From Paracoccaceae bacterium (GTDB lineage: Bacteria; Pseudomonadota; Alphaproteobacteria; Rhodobacterales; Rhodobacteraceae), in assembly GCA_029247845.1 (NCBI GenBank), contig JAQWKM010000121.1, forward strand, positions 1 to 61,005: a stretch of 61,005 nucleotides of DNA, written 5' to 3'. The translations under genes and the position numbers were made by a program. This document shows, one piece after another, positions 2,980 through 28,876 of the stretch. Numbering within the stretch: position 1 is the stretch's first letter; each line of letters starts with the position of its first letter. Below the pieces are notes generated by a model, which worked only from the letters and a program-made list of their open reading frames with translations, did no database searches and was not told the origin of the DNA.

Positions 2980-3020
2980 GATTTATCGCCAGATGATATA
3001 TAATTTAGAAGGATGACTAT

Positions 3021-4199: not shown

Positions 4200-4253
4200 T
4201 TTATTGCATTTTTCTGGATATTATCCATCACGCAATAAAAAGAAAGATACCTG

Positions 4254-5447: not shown

Positions 5448-5465
5448 TTTAGAGAGTGAGTCATC

Positions 5466-6987: not shown

Positions 6988-8049
6988 TTAAGGTAGCCAA
7001 CCATCATAGAGAGGGTGGGTTGTAGAAATTGGCAAGGTAACCCGCATGCTGCTACGAGCAGAGGCATAAATCGCAGTTATCAGCTCAAGTGATTGCTTTG
7101 CGTCTTCAAGCCTAACAGCGCTGCTGTCATCACCTTGCAACGCCTTTGCGACAGCTTCGAAGAATCCTGAAAACGATGGATGTGCAAACGTAATTGAGTT
7201 CACGCATGCATCCACTTTGGATTGATCGTATGGCGCGCGCGCGGTAAATGTCCATTGTCCATCGGCCGGTTTGTACGGTAGATTTTCACTTTCAACAGTC
7301 AAGCCTTCGAAGCAAAATTTCAGGCGGCTGGTATCCTTTGCGGCGCCTAGAGTGGTGGAACTAGTAACCAGAGCGCCACTTCTCATGCGCATCGACAGCG
7401 CAGCGCAATCTTCTACTTCAATAGCATTGACCCGTGTTGCTACATCGGCAAATACGGATTGAATTGGGCCAAAAATAAAAGTTAACAAATCATGAATATG
7501 GATTGCGTGGCCCAAAATAGCTCCGCCTTGTTCCCCAGCCCAAGTACCGCGCCAGTCTACACTGTAATATACGGAGTCCCGGCTCCAATGGGTTTCTAGG
7601 GTTGCGATAAGTGGCTTTCCAGTCAGTCCCGCATCGATCAGAGCCCGCATATGACTTGTCGCCAATCCGTAGCGGTATTGAAAAATAGGGAATAGCCGTT
7701 TCCCAGTTTCTAAAGCCACCTTGATGAGCCGATCAGCATTAGCAATAGAAGTTGTCAAAGGCTTCTCGCAAATAACATGCTTTCCACTGCGCAAGGCTTT
7801 TTCAACAGCCTGATAATGTAACATCGGTGGCAGGCAAATATCGATGATATCGATTTTTGGATCATTGAGAACCTTATCAAAATCGATCTCAACTTTGGCA
7901 CCAGAACGTTCAGCAACCAAACGGGCACGGTCTGCGTTTAAATCACAAATGGTTTTTATACGGAAAAGATTTGGTAGCGCTGAGTAACCGTCGCTATGCT
8001 CGCCACCAATGCCTGCTCCAACAATGGCTACTTTATAGGGTGCAATCAT
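6988..8049 (-). CDS. Gfo/Idh/MocA family NAD(P)-dependent oxidoreductase (paralogue 1)
   Basis: It has an N-terminal Rossmann motif 'KVAIVGAGIGG', the 'CEKPL' motif and 'GGAILGHAIHIHDL'. The length is 353 aa. Confidence 0.85.
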   Translation of the reverse strand: MIAPYKVAIVGAGIGGEHSDGYSALPNLFRIKTICDLNADRARLVAERSGAKVEIDFDKVLNDPKIDIIDICLPPMLHYQAVEKALRSGKHVICEKPLTTSIANADRLIKVALETGKRLFPIFQYRYGLATSHMRALIDAGLTGKPLIATLETHWSRDSVYYSVDWRGTWAGEQGGAILGHAIHIHDLLTFIFGPIQSVFADVATRVNAIEVEDCAALSMRMRSGALVTSSTTLGAAKDTSRLKFCFEGLTVESENLPYKPADGQWTFTARAPYDQSKVDACVNSITFAHPSFSGFFEAVAKALQGDDSSAVRLEDAKQSLELITAIYASARSSMRVTLPISTTHPLYDGWLP

Positions 8050-8382
8050 CTCACTGCTTCCATTTTTTGTTTCCTTGTCACCAGTTTTATCGACCTAGAA
8101 TGTACATTTTGTGCTCTTATCTCCCACATTTACATTATTTGACCAGTCATAAAGGTGATTTGTAAGTAAAATCTCAGTAAGAGGCTTGTAACAGAAAAAA
8201 ACGAATGCATAATAAAGACTTACGTTAACGAAATGGCATGATGAGTCGCAGTTTTTTGAACATTGACAATTTCAAAGCCAATAAATTATCGAGTGAACTT
8301 GGCGTATAAGCTGAGATTATGATTAAAAACGTCTGCTAATATCACTCGGGCAGACATAGTTCTAATTGGGAGGGCATCTTTG

Positions 8383-9657
8383 ATGTTAAATTTTAAGAGA
8401 ATACTGGCTACGTCTTCTATGGTGGCCACGCTGGCTGCTACTTCGGCGCTCGCGGAAACTGAATTGCGTATGATGTGGTATAATGACGGCAATGAAAGCG
8501 AAGTCATCCAATCCATCATTGATCGTTTCGAGGCGAATAACCCAGATATTTCTGTTGTTATTGATGTTGTTCCATACAAATCTATCATGGAATCTTTACC
8601 GATTCAGTTGGCGGCTGGTGCTGGCCCTGATCTTGCCCGCGTCACAGATTTAGGTGGCCTTAGCAAATATTATATGGATCTGACGCCGCACATCTCAAAT
8701 AGCGATTACTGGGAAGCAAGCTTTGGACCGTTCCTCGATTGGCTAGCGCCGGACTCAGATAGAATTTCTGGCTTCATGACGCAGCTGACAGTAACAGGAC
8801 CGTATGTGAATAAAACCTTCTTTGAGCAAGCTGGCGTTGCTATGCCTGGAGATGGTGCAACTTGGGATGAATGGGCCGCAGCTGCCAATGATGTTGCTGG
8901 CAAATTGGATATCCCTATTCCTATGGCATGGGACCGCTCTGGCCACCGCGTTTCTGGCCCAGCTATCGCCATGGGTGCTAAAATGTTCAATGCCGAGGGT
9001 GAACCAGCCTTGGTTGATGATGGTTTAAAAGAAATGACACAGCGCCTTTATGACTGGCACCAAGATGGTACCATGACAAAAGAGCTATGGGGATCTGTTT
9101 CAGGTTCATCTTACCTTGGCGCCAATGAAGACTTCGCTAACGGCCAAGTTGTCATGTATATGTCTGGTTCTTGGCAAATTGGTCAATTCTCAGGGACAAT
9201 TGGCGATGCCTTTGACTGGTGGGCTGTGCCAGCTCCATGTGGTGCTGCAGCTTGTACTGGTATGCCAGGTGGTGCTGCACTCGTTGCGATGAAGGATACA
9301 AAACACCCAGCAGAGGTGGGCAAGTTGATGGACTTTCTTGCGCAAGAGGAAAACTTAGCTGAATTCTACGGTAAAAACCTATTCATTCCTGGTCACCTTA
9401 AGCTGGCAACTGGTGGTGTCGACTTTGCGACCGACGACGTACGTGCCAAGCATGCTTTGAGCACCTTTGCGGGTGCCGTTCCAAAAATTGCACCTACAGC
9501 TTTCGATCTTCAAGGTTATCCAAATAACCGCATCATGTTTAATGCGCTTATCTCGCGTTTGAATGAGGCGATTGTGGGTGAACTTACCCTTGAGCAAGCT
9601 TACGTGCGCATGGAAGAAGATATTGCAAAACAGCTTGCGGCAAAGGCCCTTGAGTAA
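8383..9657 (+). CDS. Sugar ABC transporter substrate-binding protein (CUT1, SBP family 1)
   Basis: The signal peptide is 'MLNFKRILATSSMVATLAATSALAETE'. GGGAGGG lies 8 nt upstream of the ATG at 8383. The track ORF begins at a TTG one codon earlier. The size (about 424 aa) and position at the head of the permease genes fit this role. Confidence 0.85.
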   Translation: MLNFKRILATSSMVATLAATSALAETELRMMWYNDGNESEVIQSIIDRFEANNPDISVVIDVVPYKSIMESLPIQLAAGAGPDLARVTDLGGLSKYYMDLTPHISNSDYWEASFGPFLDWLAPDSDRISGFMTQLTVTGPYVNKTFFEQAGVAMPGDGATWDEWAAAANDVAGKLDIPIPMAWDRSGHRVSGPAIAMGAKMFNAEGEPALVDDGLKEMTQRLYDWHQDGTMTKELWGSVSGSSYLGANEDFANGQVVMYMSGSWQIGQFSGTIGDAFDWWAVPAPCGAAACTGMPGGAALVAMKDTKHPAEVGKLMDFLAQEENLAEFYGKNLFIPGHLKLATGGVDFATDDVRAKHALSTFAGAVPKIAPTAFDLQGYPNNRIMFNALISRLNEAIVGELTLEQAYVRMEEDIAKQLAAKALE

Positions 9658-9669
9658 GTTTAATAGACT

Positions 9670-9695
9670 GAGGTTGGCCTTATGGGGCCAACCTC
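9670..9695 (+). promoter_or_regulatory. Intercistronic perfect stem-loop between the binding-protein and permease genes
   Basis: GAGGTTGGCC (9670-9679) pairs perfectly with GGCCAACCTC (9686-9695) around the 6-nt loop TTATGG. No T-run follows. Confidence 0.5.
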
Positions 9696-9718
9696 GACAA
9701 GAAAACGGACTTTAAGTA

Positions 9719-10741
9719 ATGACCAGAAATTCAGATCAGCCTGCTGCTGTGAAAAATACAGTGGTGTCTATTGCCGGTTGGCCTGTACAGCGGGTATTCC
9801 GCTTGCTTGAATACCCGTTTTCAAAAATTCAAAAAGGGGTTGGTATCCAAGGGATGCCGTGGATTTTTCTCCTCCCTAATCTTCTATTTTTTGGAATTTT
9901 TGTTGTTATCCCTTTGTTTATAAACTTTGCCTTTTCCTTTACTGGGGGAACGGAACTATTCTTGAGCAATCGCGTTTATACAGGCACCGAACAATATCGA
10001 TTTCTACTTGAGTGCGAGACGTTTGGTGACCCCATAACATGTCGGGAAGATCGATTTTGGAAAGGCCTGTACAACACTTTTGTTTTTGTATTTTTCCAAG
10101 TTTCATTTTTGGTCCTATTTTCACTGATAACTGCTCTTATATTAAATCGCGAAATCCGTGGCCGAGGATTTTTCCGTGCAGTTTTCTTCTTTCCTGTTCT
10201 GCTTTCTCCGGTGGTTGTCGCTCTGATTTGGAAATGGATTCTATTACGCGATGGTATTCTAAATGCTTTTTTAGTCTCAATTGGAATGGATAAAATCTTA
10301 TTTTTTGTCAGTCCAGAATGGGCGATGTTCTGGGCGGTATTTGTCTCAATCTGGGCCCATATGGGGTTTTACACTCTGATTTTATTGGCCGGTCTTCAGG
10401 CTATTCAACCAGATCTTTATGAGGCGGCAGAGATGGATGGCACTTCAAAAGAGCGGGTTTTTTGGCGTATTACATTGCCGCTTTTGTGGCCCAACCTGCT
10501 TGTGGTCGTGGTCTTGGCTTTAATTAAGGGTGTGCAGGTTTTTGATGAGGTGTTTGTTCTGACCGGTGGTGGTCCCGGCACAGCCACACAGTTTATCGTG
10601 CAATATATCTATAATACTGGCTTCACTGAGCAGGTACAAGATTTTGGGCTTGCCTCTGCAGCCTCGATCGTACTGGGGGTTATCTTGTTTGTTTTGACGA
10701 TGCTGCAACTGGCTGTTACGAGAGCACGTGACAATGGCTGA
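9719..10741 (+). CDS. Carbohydrate ABC transporter permease (MalF/UgpA-like)
   Basis: The protein has six or more TM segments. It has the EAA loop 'EAAEMDGTSKERVFWRITLPLLWP'. Confidence 0.9.
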   Translation: MTRNSDQPAAVKNTVVSIAGWPVQRVFRLLEYPFSKIQKGVGIQGMPWIFLLPNLLFFGIFVVIPLFINFAFSFTGGTELFLSNRVYTGTEQYRFLLECETFGDPITCREDRFWKGLYNTFVFVFFQVSFLVLFSLITALILNREIRGRGFFRAVFFFPVLLSPVVVALIWKWILLRDGILNAFLVSIGMDKILFFVSPEWAMFWAVFVSIWAHMGFYTLILLAGLQAIQPDLYEAAEMDGTSKERVFWRITLPLLWPNLLVVVVLALIKGVQVFDEVFVLTGGGPGTATQFIVQYIYNTGFTEQVQDFGLASAASIVLGVILFVLTMLQLAVTRARDNG

Positions 10742-11807
10742 CCCGGGCGCTGACACAAAAAACTTGGCTTCTGTTGTTTTTGCGCGGCGTGGGCGTAAAA
10801 AAATGCATTGGACCGATATTTTCAGCTATGTATATTTGGCGTTTGGAATTTTCTTGATGTTTGGGCCGGTACTTTGGCTAGGAATGTCATCCTTTAAAAC
10901 CCGTGCCGGTCTGTTAGAGTTTCCGCCCACGTTTTTTCCTCTGGGTCAGATTGAGGTACAAGTTGAAGGCTACAAAAAGCCGCTTTTGCTGTTTGATGTC
11001 CAAATGGACGATGGCAGTACCAAGCAATTAGCACAAATTCGTCGGATTGGCATCGTGAGCCAAATGGTTGACCCCAAAAATCCAAGCGAAAAATTTAAAA
11101 TTCCCATAGGTCAACGCACCAAGGTGCGAGAGTTTCGCATGGCATGGGAAAATTACCGAGACCCGTTGGAGCGTTTCAATTTTCTCGTATTTTTGAAGAA
11201 TTCAGTGGTGGTCACTGTGGTGGCAACTTTGGTGACACTTTTAATTAACTCCATGGCAGCCTACGGTCTTAGTATATATGAGTTTCGGGGCCGCAATGCG
11301 ATTATGCTCTTTGTAATTGGTACGTTGATGATCCCAATTACCGTGATCATGGTCCCTGTCTATTTGGTGATCACCAATCTGGGCATGGTAAATTCCCTGT
11401 GGGCCGTAATCCTACCGGGAGCAGCTACGCCGACAGGCGTGTTTTTGTTACGTCAATACATGTTGACCATACCCAAAGAACTGATTGAGGCTGCGCGCAT
11501 GGATAATGCGTCTGAATGGACAATTTTTTCAAAAGTTGTTCTGCCGCTGGCAATGCCGGCGATTGCCGTTCTTGCGATCTTTTCGGTAATGTGGCGATGG
11601 AATGAATTTTTATGGCCACTTATCGTACTCAACAGGACTGAAGTGTACACACTGCAAGTGGGTCTGAATGCGTTTCAGGGCGAGTTAGACGTGCAATGGC
11701 ATTATATTCTTGCAATGACTGTTGTCACGCTTATTCCCGTCGCTTTGGTCTTTGCCTTTTTACAAAAATTCATCACCACTGGAATAGCGAGTTCGGGAAT
11801 GAAATGA
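10728..11807 (+). CDS. Carbohydrate ABC transporter permease (MalG/UgpE-like) with a long periplasmic loop
   Basis: It has the EAA loop 'EAARMDNASEWTIFSKVVLPLAMP'. The start is either GTG at 10728 or ATG at 10734, and both overlap the upstream stop. Confidence 0.88.
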   Translation: MTMADPGADTKNLASVVFARRGRKKMHWTDIFSYVYLAFGIFLMFGPVLWLGMSSFKTRAGLLEFPPTFFPLGQIEVQVEGYKKPLLLFDVQMDDGSTKQLAQIRRIGIVSQMVDPKNPSEKFKIPIGQRTKVREFRMAWENYRDPLERFNFLVFLKNSVVVTVVATLVTLLINSMAAYGLSIYEFRGRNAIMLFVIGTLMIPITVIMVPVYLVITNLGMVNSLWAVILPGAATPTGVFLLRQYMLTIPKELIEAARMDNASEWTIFSKVVLPLAMPAIAVLAIFSVMWRWNEFLWPLIVLNRTEVYTLQVGLNAFQGELDVQWHYILAMTVVTLIPVALVFAFLQKFITTGIASSGMK

Positions 11808-12814
11808 AGAAACCGCTAATTTTTATGGATCCATTTCCGCGTAACCAGTCCATGGTATTTACTTCTGATTGCGCCGCCGCACTCGGTCAAATGGGTGATA
11901 TTGTTGCACATTGGGGATCACGTGCACCTGATGAATTGGTGGAACAGCATTTGGCAGATATTGCTATCATCATTGGTCAGACTGCAATGCCAAAAGAGCG
12001 TTTAAACCGCGCCCCCAACTTACGCGCGATACTCAATGTGAAAGCCAATTGGGAACCAAATATAGACTATGAGGAGTGTAATGCGCGAGGCATCCATGTT
12101 CTTAGTGCCGCTCCTGCTATGGCCCCGGCAGTTGCAGAATATTGCATTGGTCAGGCGATTATGCTGCTTCGTGGATTGCATAAAGCAGATAAATTGTTTC
12201 GGTCTGGCGAGGAGTCTTACGGAATTGCTGGCAATCAGGATGCAAAAAGCCTTTATGACGCAGATGTTGCCCTAGTAGGATATGGAAATCTGGGACGGTC
12301 CTTGGCGCCATTGCTTCAGCCCTTTGGCGTGCGTTTGATGGTGCATGATCCATGGTTATCAGATGGATATCTACGCGCGGAGGGCGTGGAGCCAGTAACA
12401 CTTGCGACAGCATTAAGTAATTCTGACGTTCTATTTCTGCTAGCAGGGGTAACTGCCGAAAACGAAGGGTTTTTGGATCGTTCACGATTGGGAACAATTC
12501 GACCAGATGCCAGCGTGATATTGGCCTCCAGAGCTGAAATCGTCGAATTTGATGATTTTCTAGAGCTTGCAGCGGATGGTAAGTTCCGAGCAGCCATCGA
12601 TATTTTTCCACAAGAACCAGTGCCAGCAAGCAGTCCCTATCGTAGGGTTCCAAATGTGCTTTTTTCCTCTCATCTTGCCGGTGGATTGAATGCCTCATAT
12701 GGCAGAATACGCGAGTCGATGTTGGATGATATAAGTCAAATTCTTAAGGGATTACCACCTTTGCGAATGCAAATGGCCAATCCAAAGCTAGCAGCGAAAA
12801 TGCGAAGCCGATGA
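11804..12814 (+). CDS. D-isomer-specific 2-hydroxyacid dehydrogenase family protein
   Basis: The ATG at 11804 overlaps the permease stop in an ATGA arrangement. The longer track ORF from 11696 would run inside the permease gene. Motifs are 'VALVGYGNLGRSLA' (GxGxxG), 'RAAIDIFPQEP' and 'SSHLAG'. Confidence 0.85.
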   Translation: MKKPLIFMDPFPRNQSMVFTSDCAAALGQMGDIVAHWGSRAPDELVEQHLADIAIIIGQTAMPKERLNRAPNLRAILNVKANWEPNIDYEECNARGIHVLSAAPAMAPAVAEYCIGQAIMLLRGLHKADKLFRSGEESYGIAGNQDAKSLYDADVALVGYGNLGRSLAPLLQPFGVRLMVHDPWLSDGYLRAEGVEPVTLATALSNSDVLFLLAGVTAENEGFLDRSRLGTIRPDASVILASRAEIVEFDDFLELAADGKFRAAIDIFPQEPVPASSPYRRVPNVLFSSHLAGGLNASYGRIRESMLDDISQILKGLPPLRMQMANPKLAAKMRSR

Positions 12815-12830
12815 AACAGGATTTTCTTTG

Positions 12831-13919
12831 ATGACCAAAATTCAGCTTAAAGACATCCGCAAATCTTATGGTGACGTAGAGGTTATTCACGGGATCAATC
12901 TGGATATAGCCTCAGGCGAATTTTGCGTATTTGTCGGTCCGTCGGGCTGCGGAAAATCAACACTTTTGCGCATCATTGCAGGGCTTGATGACGTAACCGA
13001 GGGCACGGTTGAGATAGATGGGGTGGTGGTGAATTCGGTAAGTGCGTCTGAACGTGGTCTGGCGATGGTGTTCCAATCATACGCACTCTATCCTCACATG
13101 AGCGTCTATAAAAATATGGCGTTTGGACTTGAAAATGCTAAAGTTCCCAAAGCTGAAATTGAGCGCCGCGTACGTGACGCGGCCGAGATGCTGCAGATGT
13201 CCGACTATCTACAGCGAAAACCGAAAGCCTTGTCAGGTGGACAGCGCCAGCGCGTTGCAATTGGGCGGGCTATAGTCCGTAATCCAAGAGCCTTTTTGTT
13301 TGATGAACCTCTGTCCAATCTTGATGCCGAATTGCGCGTAACGATGCGCAAAGAGCTCGCGGCACTACACGCCAAAATTGGCGATACTATGATCTATGTC
13401 ACCCATGATCAGGTTGAGGCGATGACTCTAGCCGATAAAATTGTTGTATTACAAAATGGATCGATTGAACAAATTGGGGCGCCTCTGGACCTATACAATA
13501 ACCCACAAAATGTTTTTGTAGCAGGGTTCATCGGGTCGCCTAAGATGAATTTAATTCGTGCAACTGTCATAGAGGGCGCTGATGGCTTGACCCTGACGGG
13601 TCCGAATTTGTCAGTATCCATTGGACAAGTTGAGGGTATTGTTGACGGTGATATTTGCACCTTGGGAATACGTCCTGAACATATAGAAATCGTCTTGGAG
13701 GGCACTGGTCATATCGCCACAGATGTGGCTTTTGCCGAACAATTGGGCGGGGAGGCATATCTTTATTGTGATGCTGCAGGACTTCCTCAGATAACCGTAC
13801 ATCAGCAGGGGCAATTACCAATTGTGAAATCTCAAAAAGTCGCTCTTAAGTTTGACACCGCGCGAATGCATTTGTTTGATGCAAATGGTCAAGTCATTTC
13901 TCAGAGACATACCTCATGA
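12831..13919 (+). CDS. Sugar ABC transporter ATP-binding protein (MalK/UgpC family)
   Basis: It has Walker A 'GPSGCGKST', the signature 'LSGGQRQRVAIGRA' and Walker B 'FLFDEPLSNLD'. A C-terminal regulatory/TOBE-like domain is present. Confidence 0.93.
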   Translation: MTKIQLKDIRKSYGDVEVIHGINLDIASGEFCVFVGPSGCGKSTLLRIIAGLDDVTEGTVEIDGVVVNSVSASERGLAMVFQSYALYPHMSVYKNMAFGLENAKVPKAEIERRVRDAAEMLQMSDYLQRKPKALSGGQRQRVAIGRAIVRNPRAFLFDEPLSNLDAELRVTMRKELAALHAKIGDTMIYVTHDQVEAMTLADKIVVLQNGSIEQIGAPLDLYNNPQNVFVAGFIGSPKMNLIRATVIEGADGLTLTGPNLSVSIGQVEGIVDGDICTLGIRPEHIEIVLEGTGHIATDVAFAEQLGGEAYLYCDAAGLPQITVHQQGQLPIVKSQKVALKFDTARMHLFDANGQVISQRHTS

Positions 13920-14947: not shown

Positions 14948-14951
14948 GTTA

Positions 14952-15977
14952 ATGAGAAACCTCACACTGGGCGTCGTTGGTGTCGATCACAGACACATCT
15001 TTGGACAATTGGGCAAGATGCTGGAGCTTGGATGCACATGCAAGGGGTGGTGGACTGAAGGTAATCCTGAGCCAGTTGCAGGCTTTTTGCAGCGCTTTCC
15101 AGACGTGCCGCGGGTTGCAGACCGAGATAGTCTCCTACAGGACCCGGAAATAGATATGATACTCATCGCTGATGTTCCCGCCCGTCGGGCTGCACGTGCG
15201 ATTGAAGCAATGCAAGCAGGCAAAGATGTGATGACAGATAAGCCAGGTTGCACCACATTGGAACAGCTCGATAGTGTCAAAGCCTGCGCTGCTGAAAACG
15301 GGCGCATATGGTCCATAGACTTTTCTGAGCGGTTTGAAGTGCCTGCAGTGACCCGCGCCGCTGAATTGATTGCCGAGGGTCGTATTGGCAAAGTTGTGCA
15401 AACGGTTGGCCTTGGACCACACCGTCTTAATCGTCCCACGCGGCCGGACTGGTTTTTTAATGAGGCAGACTATGGAGGCATTCTCACTGATATAGCATCC
15501 CATCAGATTGATCAGTTTTTATTTTTTACCGAATCAAACGATGCAGAAATCGTCTCCTCGACTGTCGCAAATTTTGCAAATCCTTCTGATACTGGTTTGC
15601 AGGATTTTGGAGAGATCAACATACGATCTGACCAAGGCCTAGGTTATATTCGAGTTGATTGGTATACCCCTGACGGTCTCCCAACATGGGGAGATGGCCG
15701 CCTAACAATACTTGGAACTGAAGGCTATATCGAACTGCGTAAATATGTTGACGTGGCTGGCCGGGAAGGTACTGACCATGTGTTTGTTGTGAATGGGGAT
15801 GCCTGCGAGTATATCGATGCCTCCAATTCCGCTCTACCTTATTTTGAACAGCTTATTGGCGATGTGATACACCGAACCGAGACGGCTATGCCGCAGGCAC
15901 ATTGTTTTAAAGTCATGGAGATTGCTCTAAAGGCGCAAGCGCAAGCCGTCCGGTTAGGTGCTCTAAGCAAAGCTTGA
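14952..15977 (+). CDS. Gfo/Idh/MocA family oxidoreductase (paralogue 3, divergent dinucleotide motif)
   Basis: It has 'LGVVGVDHRHIF' in place of a canonical GxGxxG, plus 'TDKPG' and 'GGILTDIASHQIDQF'. It begins 4 nt after the upstream gene. Confidence 0.8.
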   Translation: MRNLTLGVVGVDHRHIFGQLGKMLELGCTCKGWWTEGNPEPVAGFLQRFPDVPRVADRDSLLQDPEIDMILIADVPARRAARAIEAMQAGKDVMTDKPGCTTLEQLDSVKACAAENGRIWSIDFSERFEVPAVTRAAELIAEGRIGKVVQTVGLGPHRLNRPTRPDWFFNEADYGGILTDIASHQIDQFLFFTESNDAEIVSSTVANFANPSDTGLQDFGEINIRSDQGLGYIRVDWYTPDGLPTWGDGRLTILGTEGYIELRKYVDVAGREGTDHVFVVNGDACEYIDASNSALPYFEQLIGDVIHRTETAMPQAHCFKVMEIALKAQAQAVRLGALSKA

Positions 15978-16049
15978 AATTGGTTATCCCATTTCACGAA
16001 GCATGAGTTTTACGAGTTACCTGATAAGTGCCTTGCTGTAGCATGGTTT

Positions 16050-17846
16050 TTATTTTGGCTGATCGTCTGTGAAATATGTTTGATAGGCTTCAGCCAATGC
16101 TGAGAAGCCTAACTTTTTAGTGTTTTTATCAGCGGCAATAACGCCTTTAAGATTCCAACCGCGCTGGTGTTGGGTCTGTCGCCTATCCGTTCGAAAGTCG
16201 TATAATATCCAAATTGATGTTCCAACAATATAGTCGGTTTGGGCCGCTAATTCGATTTGTCGTGTCAGGACTGTCGCTTGATATTCTTCGGTAAATAGCT
16301 GTGTTTCGGGACCGTGCAAACCGGCTAGAGCATCGGCACCAGTTTCGGAAATGATCACTGGCTTATCTGGCTTTGAACTTTTTAAAAGTTGCTCCAGCCC
16401 TTCAAACCCGGGTTCGTACCATCCAAAATACTGGTTTAACCCAATCACATCCAGATACGCGGTTAGCCTGTCTTCAATCTGGAACTTTTCACGGTTTATC
16501 AGGCAGGCAGCGGTAATGAGGCGTGAAGGATCCTTCTGTCGTGCTGTCTCTGCTAGGCGGCGCATAAACAACAAGCGCTCATCAGTATCGGCGTTTTCGT
16601 TGCCAATGCCCCATAGAATGACACTAGCGCGGTTGGCATCACGCCTGATCAATTCCAAGAGTTGATTTTTGGCATTTTCATAGGTAGCTTTCCGATCAAA
16701 CTGGATCGCCCAATAAACTGGGATCTCTTCCCATAATAAAACACCCATCTCATCTGCGATCTCAGCGACACGTTCGTGGTGGGGGTAGTGCGAAAGACGT
16801 GCAATATTAGCACCAAGTTCGCGCAAATGCTTAAACCGACGCCGTATGTCTACTTCATCGGAGCATTTGCCTTGTTCTCTATCTTCTTCATGAACTCCAA
16901 TCCCTCTTAACCAAAGCGGATTACCATTTAAATATAGGCTTGTTCCACGCCGTTCAATATGGCGAAAGCCCACTCGGTCAAAAACTATATCCTTATCAAA
17001 GCTGACTGATACGTCATAAAGCTTTGGGTCATGGGGCGACCACAATTTTGGTTTGGCCTTAATTGTTACGCTCGCGGTTCCGTCTCTAACTGCGATGTCC
17101 TCGCAATAAAGTCCTGCGATATCAATTTTGGCAACCCCACTTTGTGGCGCTGACAATGTCAGATCAACCCTAACCCCGTCTGTCGTAAGGTGGATAAGAA
17201 AATTGGTGATGTGTAGCTTTGGAATTTTTACCAATTCTACATCCCGATAAAGACCGCCATGATTAAACCAATCCGTGTGATGCATTGGCACTGCATCTGC
17301 GCGGCGAGAGTTATCGACCTCAATCATGATCAGATTTTCACCTTGCATGAGATGGTGCGTAATATCGGCAAAAAATGGTGTAGATCCTCCAATATGGAGG
17401 CCGCAAAAATGACCATTTAAGAAAATACGCGCGCGTTCGTTTGCCGCGCCCACCCGAAGAAATAGTTGCTCATCATCTTTAGGGGGCTCGGCCACAAATG
17501 TGCGAGAATACCATGCCGCTCCCTCAAAACGATGCCATTCGGCCTGCTGGGTTGTCCAGCAGCTTGGCACAGTTGCCATCTGCCACGCGCCGTCATCATA
17601 ATCACGCGGTATAGTCCAATTCTCAATTGGTTGAGAATCATTTTCAAGCCACCTTTGTCGCAATCCTTCGCGCATTGGGTCGATAGTGAACCTCCAATCT
17701 CCGTTAAGCGATTGGACATCGCGGCCACCCATGAAAATCAGGCTTTCAGCAGTCAGCAAAGGCTCCATGAAAGGGGCCTCAAACTCTTCTTCGTGCAGGT
17801 GCCAATAAGGATCTAATCCATCTTCGAATTGAGACTTTTCTTTCAT
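16050..17846 (-). CDS. Glycoside hydrolase family 2 (beta-glucuronidase/beta-galactosidase-like)
   Basis: The 598-aa size and layout match GH2 GUS-type enzymes. Motifs are 'FLNGHFCGLHIGGSTPFFADIT', 'SHYPHHERVAEIADEMGVLLWEEIP', 'WGIGNEN' (acid/base region) and 'ISETGAD' (nucleophile region). There is no signal peptide. Confidence 0.85.
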   Translation of the reverse strand: MKEKSQFEDGLDPYWHLHEEEFEAPFMEPLLTAESLIFMGGRDVQSLNGDWRFTIDPMREGLRQRWLENDSQPIENWTIPRDYDDGAWQMATVPSCWTTQQAEWHRFEGAAWYSRTFVAEPPKDDEQLFLRVGAANERARIFLNGHFCGLHIGGSTPFFADITHHLMQGENLIMIEVDNSRRADAVPMHHTDWFNHGGLYRDVELVKIPKLHITNFLIHLTTDGVRVDLTLSAPQSGVAKIDIAGLYCEDIAVRDGTASVTIKAKPKLWSPHDPKLYDVSVSFDKDIVFDRVGFRHIERRGTSLYLNGNPLWLRGIGVHEEDREQGKCSDEVDIRRRFKHLRELGANIARLSHYPHHERVAEIADEMGVLLWEEIPVYWAIQFDRKATYENAKNQLLELIRRDANRASVILWGIGNENADTDERLLFMRRLAETARQKDPSRLITAACLINREKFQIEDRLTAYLDVIGLNQYFGWYEPGFEGLEQLLKSSKPDKPVIISETGADALAGLHGPETQLFTEEYQATVLTRQIELAAQTDYIVGTSIWILYDFRTDRRQTQHQRGWNLKGVIAADKNTKKLGFSALAEAYQTYFTDDQPK

Positions 17847-18002
17847 TTAATTTATACTCTTTTACCAAGGTCAAATCATTGCCGAGAAGATTTCAGTTTG
17901 AATATGCTCACTAGGGGAATAGGTCCTTGCCCTTTTATCGTTGGATCACTGCTAAAGGCATTTTGCGTGAATGCTAAGAGAGGGTGTAGTGTTATGATGC
18001 AT

Positions 18003-18518
18003 TTATAAAGCACCTAACTCCCGAAAACGTCCGGCAAAAAATGTCAACGCATTGCCTTCCCGCATCTCCACATTCTCAACTTCTCCAACCATAATAATGT
18101 GATCTCCACCGGGGTAGATTGCACTTTTTTTGCATTCAAATCGGGCCAGACAGTTTTCGATCAGTGGAACACCGCGGATATTTTTTTTGGTCTCAGAATC
18201 TTCAAATGCGAAGGGTGATTTTACGAAATTATTACAGATGTTTTCCTGATTTGATGCAAGAATATGTATCGCAAAATACTCGGCTTTTTCAAAAAACTCA
18301 AAACGCCGTGATTCAATTGCAGGAGACCAAAGAACCAGAGGAGGATTAAGTGAAAGTGATGAAAAGCTATTTGCCGTTATCCCCACTGGACCTTGACCTG
18401 ACGCGGCGGTGACGATTGTGATACCGGACATAAAGCGGCTGAAAGCATCCCTCAACATTCCATTATTATCTTGGTCTGGTTTGAACTGAGTTACCATGCC
18501 TCGCCCACAATCTGCCAT
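18003..18518 (-). CDS. NAD(P)H:flavin reductase (HpaC/flavin_reduct domain); SmoA-like by context
   Basis: It has 'FMSGITIVTA...GITANSFSSLSLNPPLVLWS'. The length is 171 aa. Its ATG directly abuts the stop of the upstream AKR gene. Confidence 0.85.
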   Translation of the reverse strand: MADCGRGMVTQFKPDQDNNGMLRDAFSRFMSGITIVTAASGQGPVGITANSFSSLSLNPPLVLWSPAIESRRFEFFEKAEYFAIHILASNQENICNNFVKSPFAFEDSETKKNIRGVPLIENCLARFECKKSAIYPGGDHIIMVGEVENVEMREGNALTFFAGRFRELGAL

Positions 18519-19409
18519 CTAGGCGACCTCCTGACCCAGAGCAGTCTGATAAAGTTGAAACCAGCTTTGTCTATCTAATTCAACTTTCAGAGCATTGGAA
18601 ATACGCGCGATCCGGTCAAGATTATTAGTCCCCAACACTGGTAGAATTTTTGCAGGGTGCGCCAATAAAAAGGCAACGGCCACTGCTGCACGGTCAACGC
18701 TGTGCTGCGTGGCAATATCATCCATGACTATCCCTAAGTTTGACATATTGGTCATCAAGCTTCCGCCACCCAAGGGCGACCATGCCATCATGGAATGGCC
18801 TTGTCTCTGGTGAAACGCCAGATCGCCGTTTGTGAATGGGGATATTTCAGCAAGGCTAATCTCAATCTGATTGGTGACTAGCTGATTTTTTGTTGCTGAT
18901 TGAAGTAAGTCCCAATCCCATGGCTTAAAATTTGAAACACCAATTGCGCCAACTTTTCCAGTTGCAACCAATTCATCCAGTGCTGCACCAGTGACATGAT
19001 GATCCATCAACGGATCGGGCCGATGGATGAGCAATAAATCAATATGTTCAATACCCATTTCTAAAAGTGACGCATTAACACACGCGTGAATATGATCCCG
19101 CGAAGTGTCATAGTGTTTTACAAGCGCACCAGCATGGCGACCTGCATCGACAACAATATTACACTTGCTAACGATTTCCATTTTTGAGCGCAACGCAGGA
19201 TTGGCTTTGAGCGCCCCTCCCAGAACTGTTTCGGCCGTGTAGCCGCCGTAAATATCTGCCTGATCAAAAGTTGTGATACCCTGATCCAATGCAGTTTGAA
19301 TTTTAGCTTCGACATGATTTGGTGACGTATTGGGATCATCGGCCAGACGCCACATTCCATAGATCAGCTGACTGAAATCAAGCGAGTCTGTGATTGAAAT
19401 ACGTTTCAT
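18519..19409 (-). CDS. Aldo/keto reductase; SmoB-like (6-oxo-glucose reductase candidate) by context
   Basis: It has 'FDQADIYGGYTAE', 'LLLIHRPD' and 'IGVSNF'. The length is 296 aa. Its start overlaps the monooxygenase stop by 1 nt (TAATG). Confidence 0.85.
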   Translation of the reverse strand: MKRISITDSLDFSQLIYGMWRLADDPNTSPNHVEAKIQTALDQGITTFDQADIYGGYTAETVLGGALKANPALRSKMEIVSKCNIVVDAGRHAGALVKHYDTSRDHIHACVNASLLEMGIEHIDLLLIHRPDPLMDHHVTGAALDELVATGKVGAIGVSNFKPWDWDLLQSATKNQLVTNQIEISLAEISPFTNGDLAFHQRQGHSMMAWSPLGGGSLMTNMSNLGIVMDDIATQHSVDRAAVAVAFLLAHPAKILPVLGTNNLDRIARISNALKVELDRQSWFQLYQTALGQEVA

Positions 19410-20563
19410 TATTTACGTTCTCCTGCGCCGAGTGGCGTCATTGGTGTTTCGTTAGGTACACGTCCGTAGGCATGGGGAAGTGAGCATGTCTCAAGCTCTG
19501 GCAAGACGCTGCGACCAAAATGCTCCGCCTCTTCAATATGTGGATAACCAGAAAAAATAAAGGAGCGCATGCCGATTTTTTTGTAACTCTCTATTTTTGA
19601 AAGTACTTGATCTCTTGACCCCACAAGGGCCGCGCCACAGCCCGAACGCGCGCGCCCAACCCCTGTCCACAAACTTGGTTCGATATAACCAAATTTATCT
19701 GCAAGATCACGGTTCTTGGATTGATGTGACACGCCCAAAGATGTTGAATCCAGCGCACGATCTCTTATCATTCTGCCATATTCATCATCAAGTTTTGCGA
19801 CAATATGCTCTGCATATTCTTTTGCTTCGACTTCTGTATCGCGCACAATCATATGGACGCGCAGGCCGTAATCTAATGTGCGACTATACTTTCTTGCAAC
19901 CTCATTGACGGCTTTCATGCGACCTTCAATATCCTCGATCTTTTCAGGCCACATCAGATAGACGTCACAGTGTTGACCGCATAATTCGAGCGCATCGGGA
20001 GAATAGCCGCCAAAGTACAATAATGGTCCACCCGCTTGATAAGGCTTAGCCGGATCAGTGGTGAGGCTTCTAAAATTATAGATTTCACCTTCATAGTCAA
20101 TTTTGTCTTGTGTCCATGCCTGTTTAAGAATTTCTACGACTTCCCGTGAACGGCGATAGCGAAATGCGCTGTCTTCCTTTTGTCCGGGAAAATCCGAGCT
20201 GATGATATTGACGGTCAACCGTCCTTCAAGCATGTGATCCAAAGTTGCTAGAGTGCGTGCCAACATGATGGGTTGCATCTCGCCACAACGCACCGCAGCG
20301 AGCATATTAATCTTGCTAGTAATCGGTGCACAACCGGCCACAAACGACAGCGTATCTTGCCCAACTTGATATGAAGATGGGCACAAAATATTACGAAAGC
20401 CTAGGTCTTCGGAAGTCTTTACGATTTTGGAACAATGCGCCCAGCTCGATCTTAAGTCGCCGTCTGGAATACCAAGAAATTGATAGTCATCCGAGCACAG
20501 AGCCGAGAACCAAGAGACTTCGGCGGCTTTAAGGTCTCTAGAGGTTATCGGCACGACGGTCAT
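19409..20563 (-). CDS. SsuD-family FMNH2-dependent sulfonate monooxygenase (LLM class); SmoC-like by context
   Basis: The 384-aa product is colinear with E. coli SsuD. Matching motifs are 'WFSAL..DYQFLG', 'LATLDHMLEGRLTVNII', 'PLLYFGGYSPDALEL', 'DVYLMWPE', 'LRVHMIVRDTEVEA', 'PSLWTGVGRARSGCGAALVGS' and 'FSGYPHIEEA'. Confidence 0.88.
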   Translation of the reverse strand: MTVVPITSRDLKAAEVSWFSALCSDDYQFLGIPDGDLRSSWAHCSKIVKTSEDLGFRNILCPSSYQVGQDTLSFVAGCAPITSKINMLAAVRCGEMQPIMLARTLATLDHMLEGRLTVNIISSDFPGQKEDSAFRYRRSREVVEILKQAWTQDKIDYEGEIYNFRSLTTDPAKPYQAGGPLLYFGGYSPDALELCGQHCDVYLMWPEKIEDIEGRMKAVNEVARKYSRTLDYGLRVHMIVRDTEVEAKEYAEHIVAKLDDEYGRMIRDRALDSTSLGVSHQSKNRDLADKFGYIEPSLWTGVGRARSGCGAALVGSRDQVLSKIESYKKIGMRSFIFSGYPHIEEAEHFGRSVLPELETCSLPHAYGRVPNETPMTPLGAGERK

Positions 20564-20615
20564 AATTTTCTCCAGAAGAATAACGCTTTACCTATTGCCT
20601 AACACTGTAAATGAT

Positions 20616-20636
20616 GTAGATCAATGGTGTATCAAT
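20616..20636. promoter_or_regulatory. Candidate operator: imperfect direct repeat in the divergent monooxygenase/GntR promoter region
   Basis: GTAGATCAAT (20616-20625) and GTGTATCAAT (20627-20636) match at 8 of 10 positions. They are spaced 11 bp centre to centre, inside the 89-bp divergent intergenic region. Confidence 0.25.
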
Positions 20637-20652
20637 TCTTATCTGTCAAACT

Positions 20653-21384
20653 TTGGGAAACGATCTTTTGTCAATCGACTACAAGCAAAAAAGCGCGAGT
20701 GCGCTACCTCGATTTATCCAAATTAGTGAATTTCTGGTCCGTGAGATTGCGGCTGGTCGGTTAGTTGATGGAGAGCGTCTGGCGCCCGAGAGAGACATGG
20801 CCAAAAGCCTTAATGTTTCCGTTGGCACGCTCAGAAAATCGCTCAAAGAGTTAGAAAAAATGGGGCTTCTTGAAAGCATCCAGGGCTCTGGGAATTACGT
20901 CCGTCAGAACCAGATCGATGGAAGCGTATATGCAATGTTTCGTCTTGAATTAATCAATGGAGGAGGGCTTCCAAAGGCTGATGTTTTAGATGTTTCCCTA
21001 CATGAAAAACCTCTAGATCTACCGAAATTTGGGGCTTCAAAAAGCGCTTCGCGGATAAGGCGGCTTCGTTATTTGAATGACACAATCATCGCTATTGAGG
21101 AAATTTGGCTTGATCAAAGTGTGGGCGTAATAGATTCGGTCGGAATTTCTGATTCGCTTTACCAGTACTATAGCAAGCATTTAGGTCTCTGGATCTCTCG
21201 GGCCGAGGACTATGTCGGCATAGGCAAAGTACCCGCTTGGGCGCCAGCAGCCTTTATCCTGTTACCGGGTACAATAACTGGCTTCATTGAAAGGTTTAGC
21301 TGGGGTTCCCAGGTGGCTCCAGTCGAATATTCGCGGACTTGGTTTGATACAAATCAGACACATTATGTACAAAGGCTTAAATAG
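20653..21384 (+). CDS. GntR-family transcriptional regulator (HutC subfamily, UTRA effector domain)
   Basis: It has the wHTH motif 'ERDMAKSLNVSVGTLRKSLKELEKMGLLESIQGSGNYV' and a C-terminal UTRA-like domain. It has a TTG start and is divergent from the monooxygenase operon. Confidence 0.85.
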   Translation: MGNDLLSIDYKQKSASALPRFIQISEFLVREIAAGRLVDGERLAPERDMAKSLNVSVGTLRKSLKELEKMGLLESIQGSGNYVRQNQIDGSVYAMFRLELINGGGLPKADVLDVSLHEKPLDLPKFGASKSASRIRRLRYLNDTIIAIEEIWLDQSVGVIDSVGISDSLYQYYSKHLGLWISRAEDYVGIGKVPAWAPAAFILLPGTITGFIERFSWGSQVAPVEYSRTWFDTNQTHYVQRLK

Positions 21385-21392
21385 AAAGGCCA

Positions 21393-22487
21393 ATGAGTAT
21401 GATAAATTATGGAATGATCGGTTGTGGGATGATGGGCCACGAGCATTTGCAGAATATAGCATTGCTTGAAGGCACCAATATATCAGTCATCTTTGAACCT
21501 GATTCAGGCATGGCAAGATCAGCTGTTGTGCTTGCACCTAACGCGATGTTAGTTCGTAGCTTGGATGAACTGTTAGAATTTTCCAATCTGGATTGTCTGG
21601 TCATTTGTAGCCCAAACTACTGTCACCTTGAACAAATGCAGCGTATTGCACAAAAAAATCCTCTTCCTTTGTTAGTTGAGAAGCCTCTTTTTACATCGTC
21701 TGATGATCAAATTGCGATTTTGGAATTTTCAAAGACCTATCCGGCACTGGTTTGGGTTGCGATGGAATATCGTTATATGCCCCCGATCGCGGCCTTTGTA
21801 GATAAAGTCGATAGTGTTACGGGCGGTGTTAAAATGCTCACAATCCGCGAGCATCGGTTTCCATTTCTCAAGAAAATTGGGAATTGGAATCGTTTTAACA
21901 ATAAAACAGGTGGTACATTTGTTGAGAAATGCTGTCATTTCTTTGATCTTATGCGCTTGATTATAAAATCCGAGCCGGTGCGCATCATGGCAAGTGCAGG
22001 ACAAGACGTTAATCACCTTGAGGAAAGATACGAAGGTCAGGTTCCGGATATCTTGGATAATGGTTATGTGCTTGTTGATTTTGAAAATGGTGCAAGAGCA
22101 ATGCTAGAGCTTTGTATGTTTGCCGAAGGTTCCCAGTATCAGGAAGAAATCTCTGCTGTTGGTACAAGGGGAAAACTAGAAGCAAAAGTGCCTGGCCCTG
22201 GCCGGTTCTGGCCCAAGGAATTGTGTGCGCCTCCGGTTCCACTACTTCTAGAAAGCCCGCGCTTTCCAAAAAGACCAGTGACAAGTGAGGTGGCTGTTGA
22301 TCCGACTATTTTGAACGCAGGTGATCACAATGGCGCGACATTCTACCAACACAAGCTATTCCTAGATATGGTCAAAGGGCAAAAAAGCGCTCCGGATGTC
22401 AGTTTAGGAGATGGGTATAAGGCTGTTATTATGGGGATGGCTGCTCAGGAAAGTGCTGCCACGGGTAGGACCGTAGAGTTTGATTAG
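21393..22487 (+). CDS. Gfo/Idh/MocA family oxidoreductase (paralogue 4), co-transcribed with the GntR gene
   Basis: It has 'INYGMIGCGMMGHEH', 'VEKPL' and 'GGTFVEKCCHFFDLM'. It begins 8 nt after the regulator stop. Confidence 0.85.
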   Translation: MSMINYGMIGCGMMGHEHLQNIALLEGTNISVIFEPDSGMARSAVVLAPNAMLVRSLDELLEFSNLDCLVICSPNYCHLEQMQRIAQKNPLPLLVEKPLFTSSDDQIAILEFSKTYPALVWVAMEYRYMPPIAAFVDKVDSVTGGVKMLTIREHRFPFLKKIGNWNRFNNKTGGTFVEKCCHFFDLMRLIIKSEPVRIMASAGQDVNHLEERYEGQVPDILDNGYVLVDFENGARAMLELCMFAEGSQYQEEISAVGTRGKLEAKVPGPGRFWPKELCAPPVPLLLESPRFPKRPVTSEVAVDPTILNAGDHNGATFYQHKLFLDMVKGQKSAPDVSLGDGYKAVIMGMAAQESAATGRTVEFD

Positions 22488-27049: not shown

Positions 27050-27386
27050 GTTCCATCTTCTCCAGCTGCTCTGGCGGATAATCTTCATGATCTATCGCGC
27101 TATCACCATAATAGTCCTCGGGACGCTGGATAAAAAACCGTAGCGATTTTGCGGCCAATATAAGCGCGGTAAACATTACAAACCCATAAAACCCATAAAA
27201 GCCTTTGTATTCTTCTACGGCAAAGTGCCCGTGTTTATGATAGGCAAAATCCGCTAGGAATAAAAGAATGCAGATCGCGATAAGGACCCCTACAATCGTC
27301 TTGGAATTCTTGGGATTTATAAACCATACCAGTAGCCGACCCAGCGCGGGGTTGTCTTCTGATTTATCTGAGGGGATATGATCCAT
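27036..27386 (-). CDS. Small two-TM membrane protein of unknown function embedded in the Mrp-like operon
   Basis: The ATG at 27386 is preceded by GAGGAG. The track ORF starts at 27413, inside the upstream gene. There are two hydrophobic helices ('IVGVLIAICILLFLADFAY', 'FYGFVMFTALILAAKSL'). Both termini are acidic. Confidence 0.65.
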   Translation of the reverse strand: MDHIPSDKSEDNPALGRLLVWFINPKNSKTIVGVLIAICILLFLADFAYHKHGHFAVEEYKGFYGFYGFVMFTALILAAKSLRFFIQRPEDYYGDSAIDHEDYPPEQLEKMEHGDV

Positions 27387-27396
27387 CAACTTCTCC

Positions 27397-28875: not shown

Positions 28876-28876
28876 C

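Follow-up and report, generated by a model that had tools for sequence, protein, structure and literature searches.

One predicted GH188 sulfoquinovosidase among four Gfo/Idh/MocA proteins at a sulfoquinovose locus that most probably joins two catabolic modules

Contig JAQWKM010000121.1 of a Paracoccaceae bacterium (Rhodobacterales; assembly GCA_029247845.1) carries a 15.5-kb locus with genes resembling the triad of the sulfoquinovose monooxygenase (sulfo-SMO) pathway. The locus has no gene for a GH31 sulfoquinovosidase (SQase) and contains four genes of the Gfo/Idh/MocA oxidoreductase family, here termed Gfo1 to Gfo4 in order of position, which raises the question of which enzyme releases sulfoquinovose (SQ) from its glycosides and what the remaining oxidoreductases do. 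A sequence-only reading of this DNA had proposed that an NAD+-dependent SQase may be found among the four, and that the others might take part in 3-keto-glycoside chemistry or oxidise 6-oxo-glucose. We analysed the whole stretch of 61,005 nt (61 kb) containing the locus, hereafter the window, which stems from a marine lineage of low GC content (about 46%), using a listing of open reading frames (ORFs) and Pfam scans. In the locus, two catabolic modules very probably lie side by side: module A (18003-22487), a standard roseobacter sulfo-SMO core that includes Gfo4 as its predicted SQase, and module B (6988-17846), an independent uronate-type operon with Gfo1, an ABC importer, a D-isomer 2-hydroxyacid dehydrogenase (HADH), Gfo2, Gfo3 and a GH2 hydrolase.

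The ORF list and the Pfam scans place the four Gfo/Idh/MocA genes where the sequence-only reading had them, with each product matching the N- and C-terminal domains of the family (E = 8e-11 to 2e-26). They are four members of one family, as had been said, but not recent duplicates: their mutual identity is 21-32% over partial alignments only, so recent duplication was rejected in favour of four old subfamilies. None of the NCBIfam models names any of the four proteins, all scores being far below the cut-offs. The absence of GH31 holds across the entire window, since a Pfam scan of every ORF of at least 560 aa detected no such protein and tblastn with a GH31 protein probe found no match in the window or in the other fetched loci, by which a hidden GH31 gene elsewhere in the window is rejected. 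The SMO-like triad proved genuine, with SmoC and SmoB matching solved structures of these enzymes (E-values in Table 1) and SmoC, SmoA and SmoB all present. The three genes, in the order smoA-smoB-smoC, are divergent from gntR and gfo4, which lie 8 bp apart on the same strand, in agreement with the suggestion that one Gfo gene is co-transcribed with the GntR regulator.

Judged by its sequence and its predicted structure, Gfo4 is a member of the published GH188 SqgA family and a predicted NAD+-dependent SQase. A phmmer search of the PDB aligned it over its full length with RdSqgA of Roseobacter denitrificans OCh 114 (8zn9, E = 6e-159) and with 8qc2/8qc3 (about 1e-100), and BLASTP gave 62.7% identity to RdSqgA over 359 aa and 46.4% to FlSqgA (8qc2) over 364 aa. 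For prokaryotic SqgA, Ma et al. (2025, PMC12780224) set a threshold of 54% identity to RdSqgA, which Gfo4 exceeds, and the sequence similarity network clusters of Kaur et al. (2023, PMC10755693) correspond to >53%. The AlphaFold (AF2) model of Gfo4 (pLDDT 87.7) matches 8zn9 with a TM-score of 0.95 and ArSqgA/FlSqgA (8qc3/8qc6) with 0.93, while other Gfo proteins reach 0.79 at most. The titles of Foldseek matches include 'oxidoreductive sulfoquinovosidase from Arthrobacter sp. U41 (ArSqgA)', '...in complex with NAD+ and sulfoquinovo…' and 'A vast marine sulfonate-based carbon cycle fueled by novel sulfoquinovosidases'. Gfo4 also has the two-domain architecture of GH188, an N-terminal Rossmann NAD-binding domain followed by a C-terminal alpha/beta dimerisation domain (Pfam GFO_IDH_MocA and GFO_IDH_MocA_C), with the glycine-rich loop GCGMMG.

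The active site supports this placement at the level of individual residues. In published SqgA the sugar is contacted by Lys107 and His193 (C3-OH), Tyr136 (C2-OH), Glu189 (C4-OH) and His321 (C1-OH), and the sulfonate by Arg166, Lys172 and the backbone NH of Leu170 (PMC10755693); the conserved residues given by Ma et al. (2025, PMC12780224) are K98, Y127, R156, L160, K162, E179 and H183. All 8 published contact residues are kept in Gfo4. K97, Y126, E178, H182 and H312 align with ArSqgA residues 107, 136, 189, 193 and 321, and the sulfonate triad R155, K161 and L159, situated in the conserved block EHRFPFLKK, corresponds to residues 166, 172 and 170. Gfo4 thus shares fold, catalytic residues and sulfonate residues with RdSqgA and with ArSqgA/FlSqgA (8qc2-8qc8). 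SqgA requires NAD+; its substrates are sulfoquinovosyl-glycerol (SQGro) and the alpha- and beta-para-nitrophenyl (PNP) glycosides of SQ, PNP-beta-glucuronide is not accepted, and deuterium enters at C2 during the reaction (Kaur et al. 2023, PMC10755693). The sequence-only reading had also recommended a comparison with GH109 and GH4. These families have an oxidise-eliminate-hydrate-reduce logic in common with SqgA, and GH109 additionally shares a Gfo-like fold and two catalytic histidines (Kaur et al. 2023, PMC10755693), but no GH109 or GH4 structure is among the listed PDB sequence or fold matches of the four proteins, and Gfo4 belongs to GH188.

The genomic setting of Gfo4, transcribed divergently from smoCBA with no GH31 gene in the cluster, is that expected of SqgA, as nearly all roseobacter sulfo-SMO clusters without GH31 carry GH188 (Kaur et al. 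2023, PMC10755693). When species-representative genomes were scanned with Gfo4, at least 593 relatives emerged, of which the best 80 (60-71% identity, loci L001-L080) come nearly all from Rhodobacterales, Roseibium or Rhizobium; the database names of these homologues are generic. When the genes of the window were searched against the 80 loci by tblastn, SqgA was found in 80, GntR in 79, SmoC in 79 (at 72-84% identity), SmoB in 77 and SmoA in 73, always with smoA-smoB-smoC on the minus and gntR-sqgA on the plus strand. The neighbourhood analysis that had been called for hence recovers the five-gene core of module A in 73-79 of 80 genomes. In the same loci GH2 was never found, HADH in one at most, and Gfo1, Gfo2 and Gfo3 in two, both from Nioella. 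That a GH31 SQase is missing would be explained by an SqgA-type Gfo4 filling its role.

A strongly conserved element of roughly 25 nt, GATGTAGATCAATGGTGTATCAATT, with two TGTAnATCAAT-like half-sites, lies in the intergenic region between smoC and gntR. Its core 8-mers occur in 60-72 of the 79 orthologous intergenic regions (78 loci and the window) despite a wide GC range, and the window contains a single copy where 0 are expected by chance. The UTRA-GntR regulator of the SMO and SqgA genes probably uses this element as its operator. A CTTGCGTAGCA-like box is present just upstream of the element in many loci.

The arrangement closely resembles that of R. denitrificans, where sqgA likewise lies beside a GntR regulator, points away from smoCBA and has no GH31 gene in its cluster; there is no substantive difference at the protein level, but the R. 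denitrificans locus has a TRAP transporter (DctPQM) and the window does not. A TRAP transporter (DctP/Q/M) follows smoA in about 58 of the 80 loci and an ABC importer in about 11. As the window has no TRAP genes and its solute-binding protein (SBP) is not SmoF-like (no match to SmoF in the PDB at E <1e-5), it appears to lack the dedicated SQ/SQGro importer of a sulfo-SMO cluster. The Agrobacterium tumefaciens sulfo-SMO cluster (SmoA-I; 7oh2 for SmoC, 7bby for SmoB) has the SmoC/SmoB/SmoA triad in common with the window; it uses the GH31 enzyme SmoI as gateway rather than GH188 SqgA and imports through the SmoEFGH ABC system, whereas the window has no SmoF-type SBP and a regulator of the UTRA-GntR type. 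Two further gene families were observed beside these clusters in other genomes. Genes for di-haem cytochrome c peroxidase/MauG-like and Sel1-repeat proteins, for which sulfite handling may be a possible role, accompany TRAP-type SMO clusters in about 41 of the 80 genomes (e.g., L025 1404-3230, L002 2921-3586; L090 1615-3369). A PF03601 membrane protein (Cons_hypoth698, YeiH-like) is encoded beside ABC-type SMO clusters (L018 723-1760 and about 19 other loci) and could be an exporter of sulfite or sulfate.

Gfo1, Gfo2 and Gfo3 fall outside GH188. They align only partially with SqgA, at 20-28% identity and E-values of 1e-10 to 0.06, and carry S, D or R at the position of Gfo4 K161 and G, S or D at that of E178, so the sulfonate Lys and the C4-OH Glu of SqgA are missing, as are the SqgA-specific blocks and insertions in the alignment. 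The proposal of an NAD+-dependent SQase among the four genes is therefore supported for Gfo4 and fails for the other three, whose similarity is generic and whose operon, tied to hexuronate genes, has its own pattern of conservation and its own regulation. Their similarity to the glucuronide-3-dehydrogenase 8tdi and to DgpA is weak (1e-11 to 1e-17), NCBIfam models for glycoside and disaccharide 3-dehydrogenases score far below cut-off, and no xylose-isomerase-like lyase is encoded in module B. The best PDB matches of Gfo1 (3q2k, 8e-39; 3q2i, 2e-35) and of Gfo2 (1e-35 and 1e-30 to the same entries) are proteins that we take to be WlbA-type UDP-N-acetylglucosaminuronate 3-dehydrogenases; the similarity is at the subfamily level, and neither window gene stands in a nucleotide-sugar or lipopolysaccharide context. 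The start of gfo2 overlaps the stop of the ATPase gene in an ATGA at 13916-13919, as had been noted.

Gfo3, whose N-terminus begins MRNLTLGVVGVDHRHIF, strongly matches 3u3x from Sinorhizobium meliloti (2e-107) and 2p2s from Pectobacterium (1e-88), neither of which has an assigned function. The motif GVVGVDHRHIF, described before as a degenerate dinucleotide motif, is indeed present; as a sign of local decay it was rejected, since a signature G-(I/L/V/M)-D-H-(R/G)-H-(I/V/T)-(F/Y) replaces the GxGxxG loop family-wide and is kept in all 10 orthologues inspected, including those in L073, L076, L081-L087 and L089. Across the loci compared, Gfo3 always directly follows a canonical Gfo2, and its sequence suggests a non-NAD-binding or heteromeric role, which may be a non-redox one.

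Two genes of module B had been passed over in the sequence-only reading. The HADH gene is embedded in the importer operon; its mechanical ORF starts at 11696, but translation probably begins with an ATG at 11804 that forms an ATGA with the stop codon of the permease gene and gives a protein of 336 aa, as called in the close relative L087 and in Ruegeria hyattellae (L089). A PDB search with it gave no more than an uncharacterised structural-genomics entry (4hy3, 1e-64). The second is a GH2 gene that lies downstream of smoA on its strand, after a gap of 156 bp, in view of which the earlier framing of the locus without any glycosidase does not stand. The GH2 protein (Pfam Glyco_hydro_2_N/2/2_C) matches 6ncy, a hybrid beta-glucuronidase (GUS)/galacturonidase, at E = 4e-169, and shares with it and with E. 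coli GUS (3k46) the N-terminal, sandwich and TIM-barrel domains and the NE(N), SETG and N-x-K motifs. The motifs of the window protein, GNEN (415), SETG (500) and N565-L-K567, presumably correspond to E413, E504 and N566/K568 of E. coli GUS, that is, to the catalytic glutamates and to carboxylate recognition. With the NCBIfam beta-glucuronidase model, whose cut-off is 544 bits, the protein scores 280 bits and hence is not an equivalog, and distant homologues sit in unrelated sugar or TRAP loci that are of no help on the substrate. A setting with an SQ operon on one side and a Gfo-rich importer operon on the other is not known for GUS enzymes.

The independence of module B is best seen in R. 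hyattellae (GCA_041537925.1). Its contig 7 carries the order FCD-GntR-SBP-permease-permease-HADH-ATPase-Gfo2-Gfo3-Gfo1-hydrolase with a convergent GH2 gene, and the identities to the window are 86% for SBP, 87% and 84% for the permeases, 73% for HADH, 78% for the ATPase, 66% for Gfo2, 81% for Gfo3, 50% for Gfo1 and 72% for GH2. There are no SMO genes within 10 kb of this module, and the SMO core of the same genome lies on contig 14 (dctPMQ-smoA-smoB-smoC, divergent gntR-sqgA), separate from the module B contig. We assign the importer of the window to module B because of this 78-87% orthology; importers inside SMO operons are 43-62% identical to it. Furthermore, the operator of module A was not found in the module B promoter regions of the window.

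A metagenome scan with Gfo3 provided 39 loci of at least 8 kb, in which the neighbours were Gfo2 (32 loci), Gfo1 (26), the ATPase (25), the permeases (22-24), SBP (19), HADH (18), an FCD-GntR regulator (17), UxuA (15), UxaC (9), a mannitol-dehydrogenase-family protein (9) and GH2 (5). Gfo1, which in the window is divergent from the importer operon, stands after Gfo3 in 26 of the 39. A Phyllobacterium plasmid has Gfo2-Gfo3(-Gfo1) with its own GntR regulator and ABC importer, and on plasmids of Thalassococcus, Sulfitobacter and Paracoccus the same genes lie amid uxaC, uxuA, a mannitol-dehydrogenase-family gene, altronate dehydratase, a sugar kinase resembling 2-keto-3-deoxygluconate kinase, and TRAP/TTT carboxylate transporters. 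An alpha/beta-hydrolase (DLH/S9-like), absent from the window, occurs in 18 of 43 loci and closes the operon in R. hyattellae (L089 11788-12672), and GH2 accompanies module B in 5-7 of about 40 loci, most module B loci having no classical glycosidase. The neighbour counts and the plasmids together point to a canonical module: uxuA beside FCD-gntR-SBP-permease-permease-HADH-ATPase-Gfo2-Gfo3-Gfo1-hydrolase, followed by either uxaC-uxuB or GH2. By its gene content, this canonical module is a hexuronate-linked system. Some orthologous copies contain genes that are also found in hexuronate (Ashwell) loci, namely UxaC, UxuB of the mannitol-dehydrogenase family, UxuA and an FCD-type ExuR/UxuR regulator, and the set of Gfo2-Gfo3-Gfo1, HADH and alpha/beta-hydrolase is not part of the classical Ashwell pathway.

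Close relatives of the window show the two modules parting ways. In L087, L088 and L095 module B is intact and 87-96% identical to that of the window, while the SMO genes have decayed: L088 (1-2767) has lost smoA and smoB, so that smoC abuts GH2; in L087 (3890-6116) a deletion has removed gntR, and both sqgA and smoC are missing their 5' ends; and in L095 (10667-11320) smoA and smoB are reduced to remnants of 110 aa and 87 aa. Since module B is kept where SMO has decayed, it does not depend on the SMO pathway. The SMO copy of the window is intact, unlike these three, which represent differing stages of erosion.

Table 1 Features of the two modules in the window
Feature	Position	Strand	Basis and module
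Gfo1, NAD-type Gfo/Idh/MocA dehydrogenase	6988-8049	-	Pfam; divergent from importer operon; module B
CUT1-type solute-binding protein (SBP)	8380-9657	+	Pfam SBP_bac_1/8; module B
Two ABC permeases	9719-10741 and 10728-11807	+	Pfam BPD_transp_1; module B
D-isomer 2-hydroxyacid dehydrogenase (HADH)	11804-12814	+	Pfam 2-Hacid_dh_C; inside importer operon; module B
MalK-type ABC ATPase	12828-13919	+	Pfam ABC_tran, OB_MalK, TOBE_2; module B
Gfo2, NAD-type Gfo/Idh/MocA dehydrogenase	13916-14947	+	Pfam; module B
Gfo3, Gfo-fold protein, G-x-D-H-R-H instead of GxGxxG	14952-15977	+	module B
GH2 beta-glucuronidase/galacturonidase-like hydrolase, 598 aa	16050-17846	-	accessory gene of module B
SmoA, flavin reductase	18003-18518	-	Pfam Flavin_Reduct 1.8e-36; module A
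SmoB, aldo-keto reductase (6-oxo-glucose reductase)	18519-19409	-	matches 7bby/7bbz, E = 1e-119; module A
SmoC, FMNH2-dependent sulfoquinovose monooxygenase	19409-20563	-	matches 7oh2/7olf, E = 1e-207; module A
Operator-like element TGTAGATCAATGGTGTATCAAT	20615-20636		smoC-gntR intergenic region
GntR/UTRA (HutC-type) regulator	20653-21384	+	Pfam GntR and UTRA; module A
Gfo4, predicted SqgA-type NAD+-dependent sulfoquinovosidase (GH188)	21393-22487	+	module A

On the molecular level, the two modules may be pictured as follows. In module A, the conserved operator that separates smoCBA from the divergent gntR-sqgA genes is probably the binding site of the UTRA-type GntR repressor. SqgA (Gfo4) would cleave imported SQGro by means of a tightly bound NAD+, through C3 oxidation, elimination of the aglycone, re-hydration and re-reduction, a course shown for its homologues and predicted here; SmoC together with the flavin reductase SmoA would then remove sulfite from SQ to give 6-oxo-glucose, which SmoB would reduce to glucose. 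In module B, the CUT1 ABC importer may take up an anionic glycoside of the uronate type, and GH2, with its glucuronidase carboxylate-recognition motif, and/or Gfo2-Gfo3-Gfo1 with HADH may convert it to an intermediate of the hexuronate (UxaC/UxuB/UxuA) route, as gene context would suggest. Belonging to a separate operon, Gfo1-3 are then expected to be neither SQases nor steps of the SMO pathway.

Several observations weigh against two modules that merely adjoin. Module B adjoins SQ clusters more frequently than expected by chance; at least five arrangements occur, and SQ genes are its commonest non-module neighbour, in 7-8 of the 39 Gfo3-centred loci (1 of the 12 with full 10-kb flanks). Besides the window type, we found Gfo1 and GH2 facing smoB and smoC (L112: Gfo1> GH2> <smoB <smoC); an alpha/beta-hydrolase translationally coupled to smoA by an ATGA overlap in Nioella, L140 and L162; Gfo1> <sqgA-like <fucose-isomerase-like in L125/L129; and, in L160, <sqgA-like <isomerase-like <DeoC/LacD aldolase beside SBP>. 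In Nioella sediminis (L076 5713-6633; compare L073, L140, L162 and L043) the hydrolase ATG overlaps the smoA stop, so the hydrolase is co-operonic with smoCBA there. In the last two arrangements (L160 1-3196, L129 9810-11736) the SqgA-like genes, whose products share 50-58% identity with Gfo4, are accompanied by a gene for a fucose-isomerase-C-domain protein, and the clusters look sulfoglycolytic rather than SMO-type; because both lack smoC, the association concerns SqgA/SQ clusters in general and not 6-oxo-glucose. Moreover, SMO cores adjoining module B never show a TRAP transporter, as against about 58 of 80 SqgA-centred loci, and with TRAP missing the module B ABC system is the only importer near SQ genes in the window. 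The SBP of the window is as near (44-50% identity) to SMO-embedded SBPs as to those linked to the Gfo trio; the two kinds interleave, so that SBP phylogeny does not tell whether the importer goes with the SQ genes or with module B. A terminator and promoter scan with RNA folding between smoA and GH2 detected no terminator and gave no signal either way. The functions proposed for module B derive from gene context, and uxaC, uxuA, uxuB and an FCD-type regulator are absent from the window; because these four are present in orthologous modules, we file module B as hexuronate-associated and not as a classical hexuronate locus. A 2026 review of aquatic SQ cycling makes no mention of glucuronidase, glucuronate or GH2, and the association of module B with SQ genes thus seems undescribed.

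Such pairing could mean that the modules are functionally coupled, with module B as an undescribed route for alpha-glucuronosyl-glycerol. This compound is the head-group of glucuronosyl-diacylglycerol (GlcADG), a second anionic glyceroglycolipid, which the sulfolipid (SQDG) synthase SQD2 produces and which is reported from bacteria and algae. The ABC importer would then be shared with SQGro where TRAP is missing, and the three Gfo proteins would form a split oxidoreductive glucuronidase by analogy with SqgA, with Gfo2 as C3 dehydrogenase, Gfo3 as NAD-less lyase or hydratase and Gfo1 as reductase, delivering glucuronate to UxaC/UxuB/UxuA. Consistent with this are the recurrence of module B beside TRAP-less SQ clusters of two pathway types, the kinship of the SBP with SMO-operon SBPs, the CUT1 importer, typical of glycosides, in loci most of which have no classical glycosidase, the conserved DHRH motif of Gfo3 in place of the NAD loop, and Gfo1 and Gfo2 being nearest among solved structures to the presumed WlbA-type 3-dehydrogenases. 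The similarity of Gfo1 and Gfo2 to glycoside 3-dehydrogenases is weak, however (8tdi, 1e-11 to 1e-15), and module B encodes no lyase of the sugar-phosphate-isomerase type such as the known multi-enzyme systems for oxidative deglycosylation possess. The low count of SQ neighbours where flanks are complete also speaks against coupling, as do R. hyattellae, in which the modules are unlinked and the SMO core has a TRAP transporter of its own, the operator, which is not shared, and the GH2 of the window, a beta-type enzyme. We therefore consider functional coupling of this kind unlikely, while still giving it some weight.

Oxidation of the SMO product 6-oxo-glucose by Gfo1-3, for instance via glucurono-6,3-lactone to glucuronate and on into the hexuronate route, would make sense of the linkage of module B to uxaC/uxuA/uxuB, of a putative lactonase or esterase (the alpha/beta-hydrolase) directly after smoA in Nioella-type loci, and of L088, which keeps smoC without smoB beside module B. 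An internal shunt would nevertheless have no need of an importer and a regulator of its own, and module B adjoins SmoC-less SQ clusters (L160, L129), is intact where smoC is truncated (L087) or smoA and smoB are fragments (L095) and is absent from 78 of 80 SMO loci; SmoB, for its part, is kept in the window and in Nioella. This idea, also raised in the sequence-only reading, is accordingly disfavoured, and we regard it as very improbable. Scarcely credible to us is a second SQase in the form of one of Gfo1-3 or of GH2, which might use its N-x-K motif on the 6-sulfonate of beta-sulfoquinovosides. The N-x-K motif recognises the C6 anion in glucuronidases such as E. coli GUS, and the GH2 gene, which carries what we take to be this anion-recognising motif, lies close downstream of smoA with no terminator detected and follows smoC in L088. 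Against this, GH2 is found in none of the 80 SqgA-centred loci, accompanies module B in R. hyattellae where no SMO genes are nearby, and has distant homologues beside sugar or TRAP systems of other kinds; SQ glycosides in nature have an alpha linkage, SqgA covers both anomers, and Gfo1-3 are without the SqgA sulfonate residues. Two juxtaposed modules, each with its own conserved gene set, thus remain the reading we prefer.

The window contains other genes of note outside the two modules. Upstream of Gfo1, a same-strand run at 667-6893 encodes a molybdopterin oxidoreductase (770 aa), a GCV_T-type aminomethyltransferase, an Fe-dependent alcohol dehydrogenase and an aldehyde dehydrogenase, and is preceded by an ABC permease; it is likely a separate catabolic unit, perhaps for a methylated amine or an alcohol, and is not kept beside either module in other genomes. 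Directly after sqgA, at 22580-23533 (+), lies an ornithine cyclodeaminase/mu-crystallin-family gene with tblastn matches in 0 of 80 related loci. A multi-subunit Mrp/NADH-quinone-type antiporter cluster occupies 25349-30415 (-), and a PF04143 'Sulphur transport' (YeeE/YedE-like) membrane protein is encoded at 58221-59273 (-), about 36 kb from the SMO genes.

What replaces a GH31 SQase in such clusters has already been published, with GH188 SqgA in 2023 (Kaur et al. 2023, PMC10755693) and with the crystallisation and assay of a roseobacter SqgA in 2025 (Ma et al. 2025, PMC12780224), so that the predicted SqgA of the window is confirmatory, one more orthologue from a low-GC marine lineage. New with respect to these papers are the placement of Gfo1-3 in a widespread, uncharacterised, uronate-linked operon with an NAD-loop-less member, and the finding that this operon recurs beside SQ clusters from which the usual importer is missing. 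Should the link be functional, it would suggest that the anionic head-groups of algal glycolipids are taken up or catabolised along shared lines, and a route for GlcADG would explain the repeated nesting of module B beside SqgA-containing SQ clusters that lost TRAP. If it is not, the locus serves as a warning against assigning every dehydrogenase beside a sulfosugar operon to that pathway.

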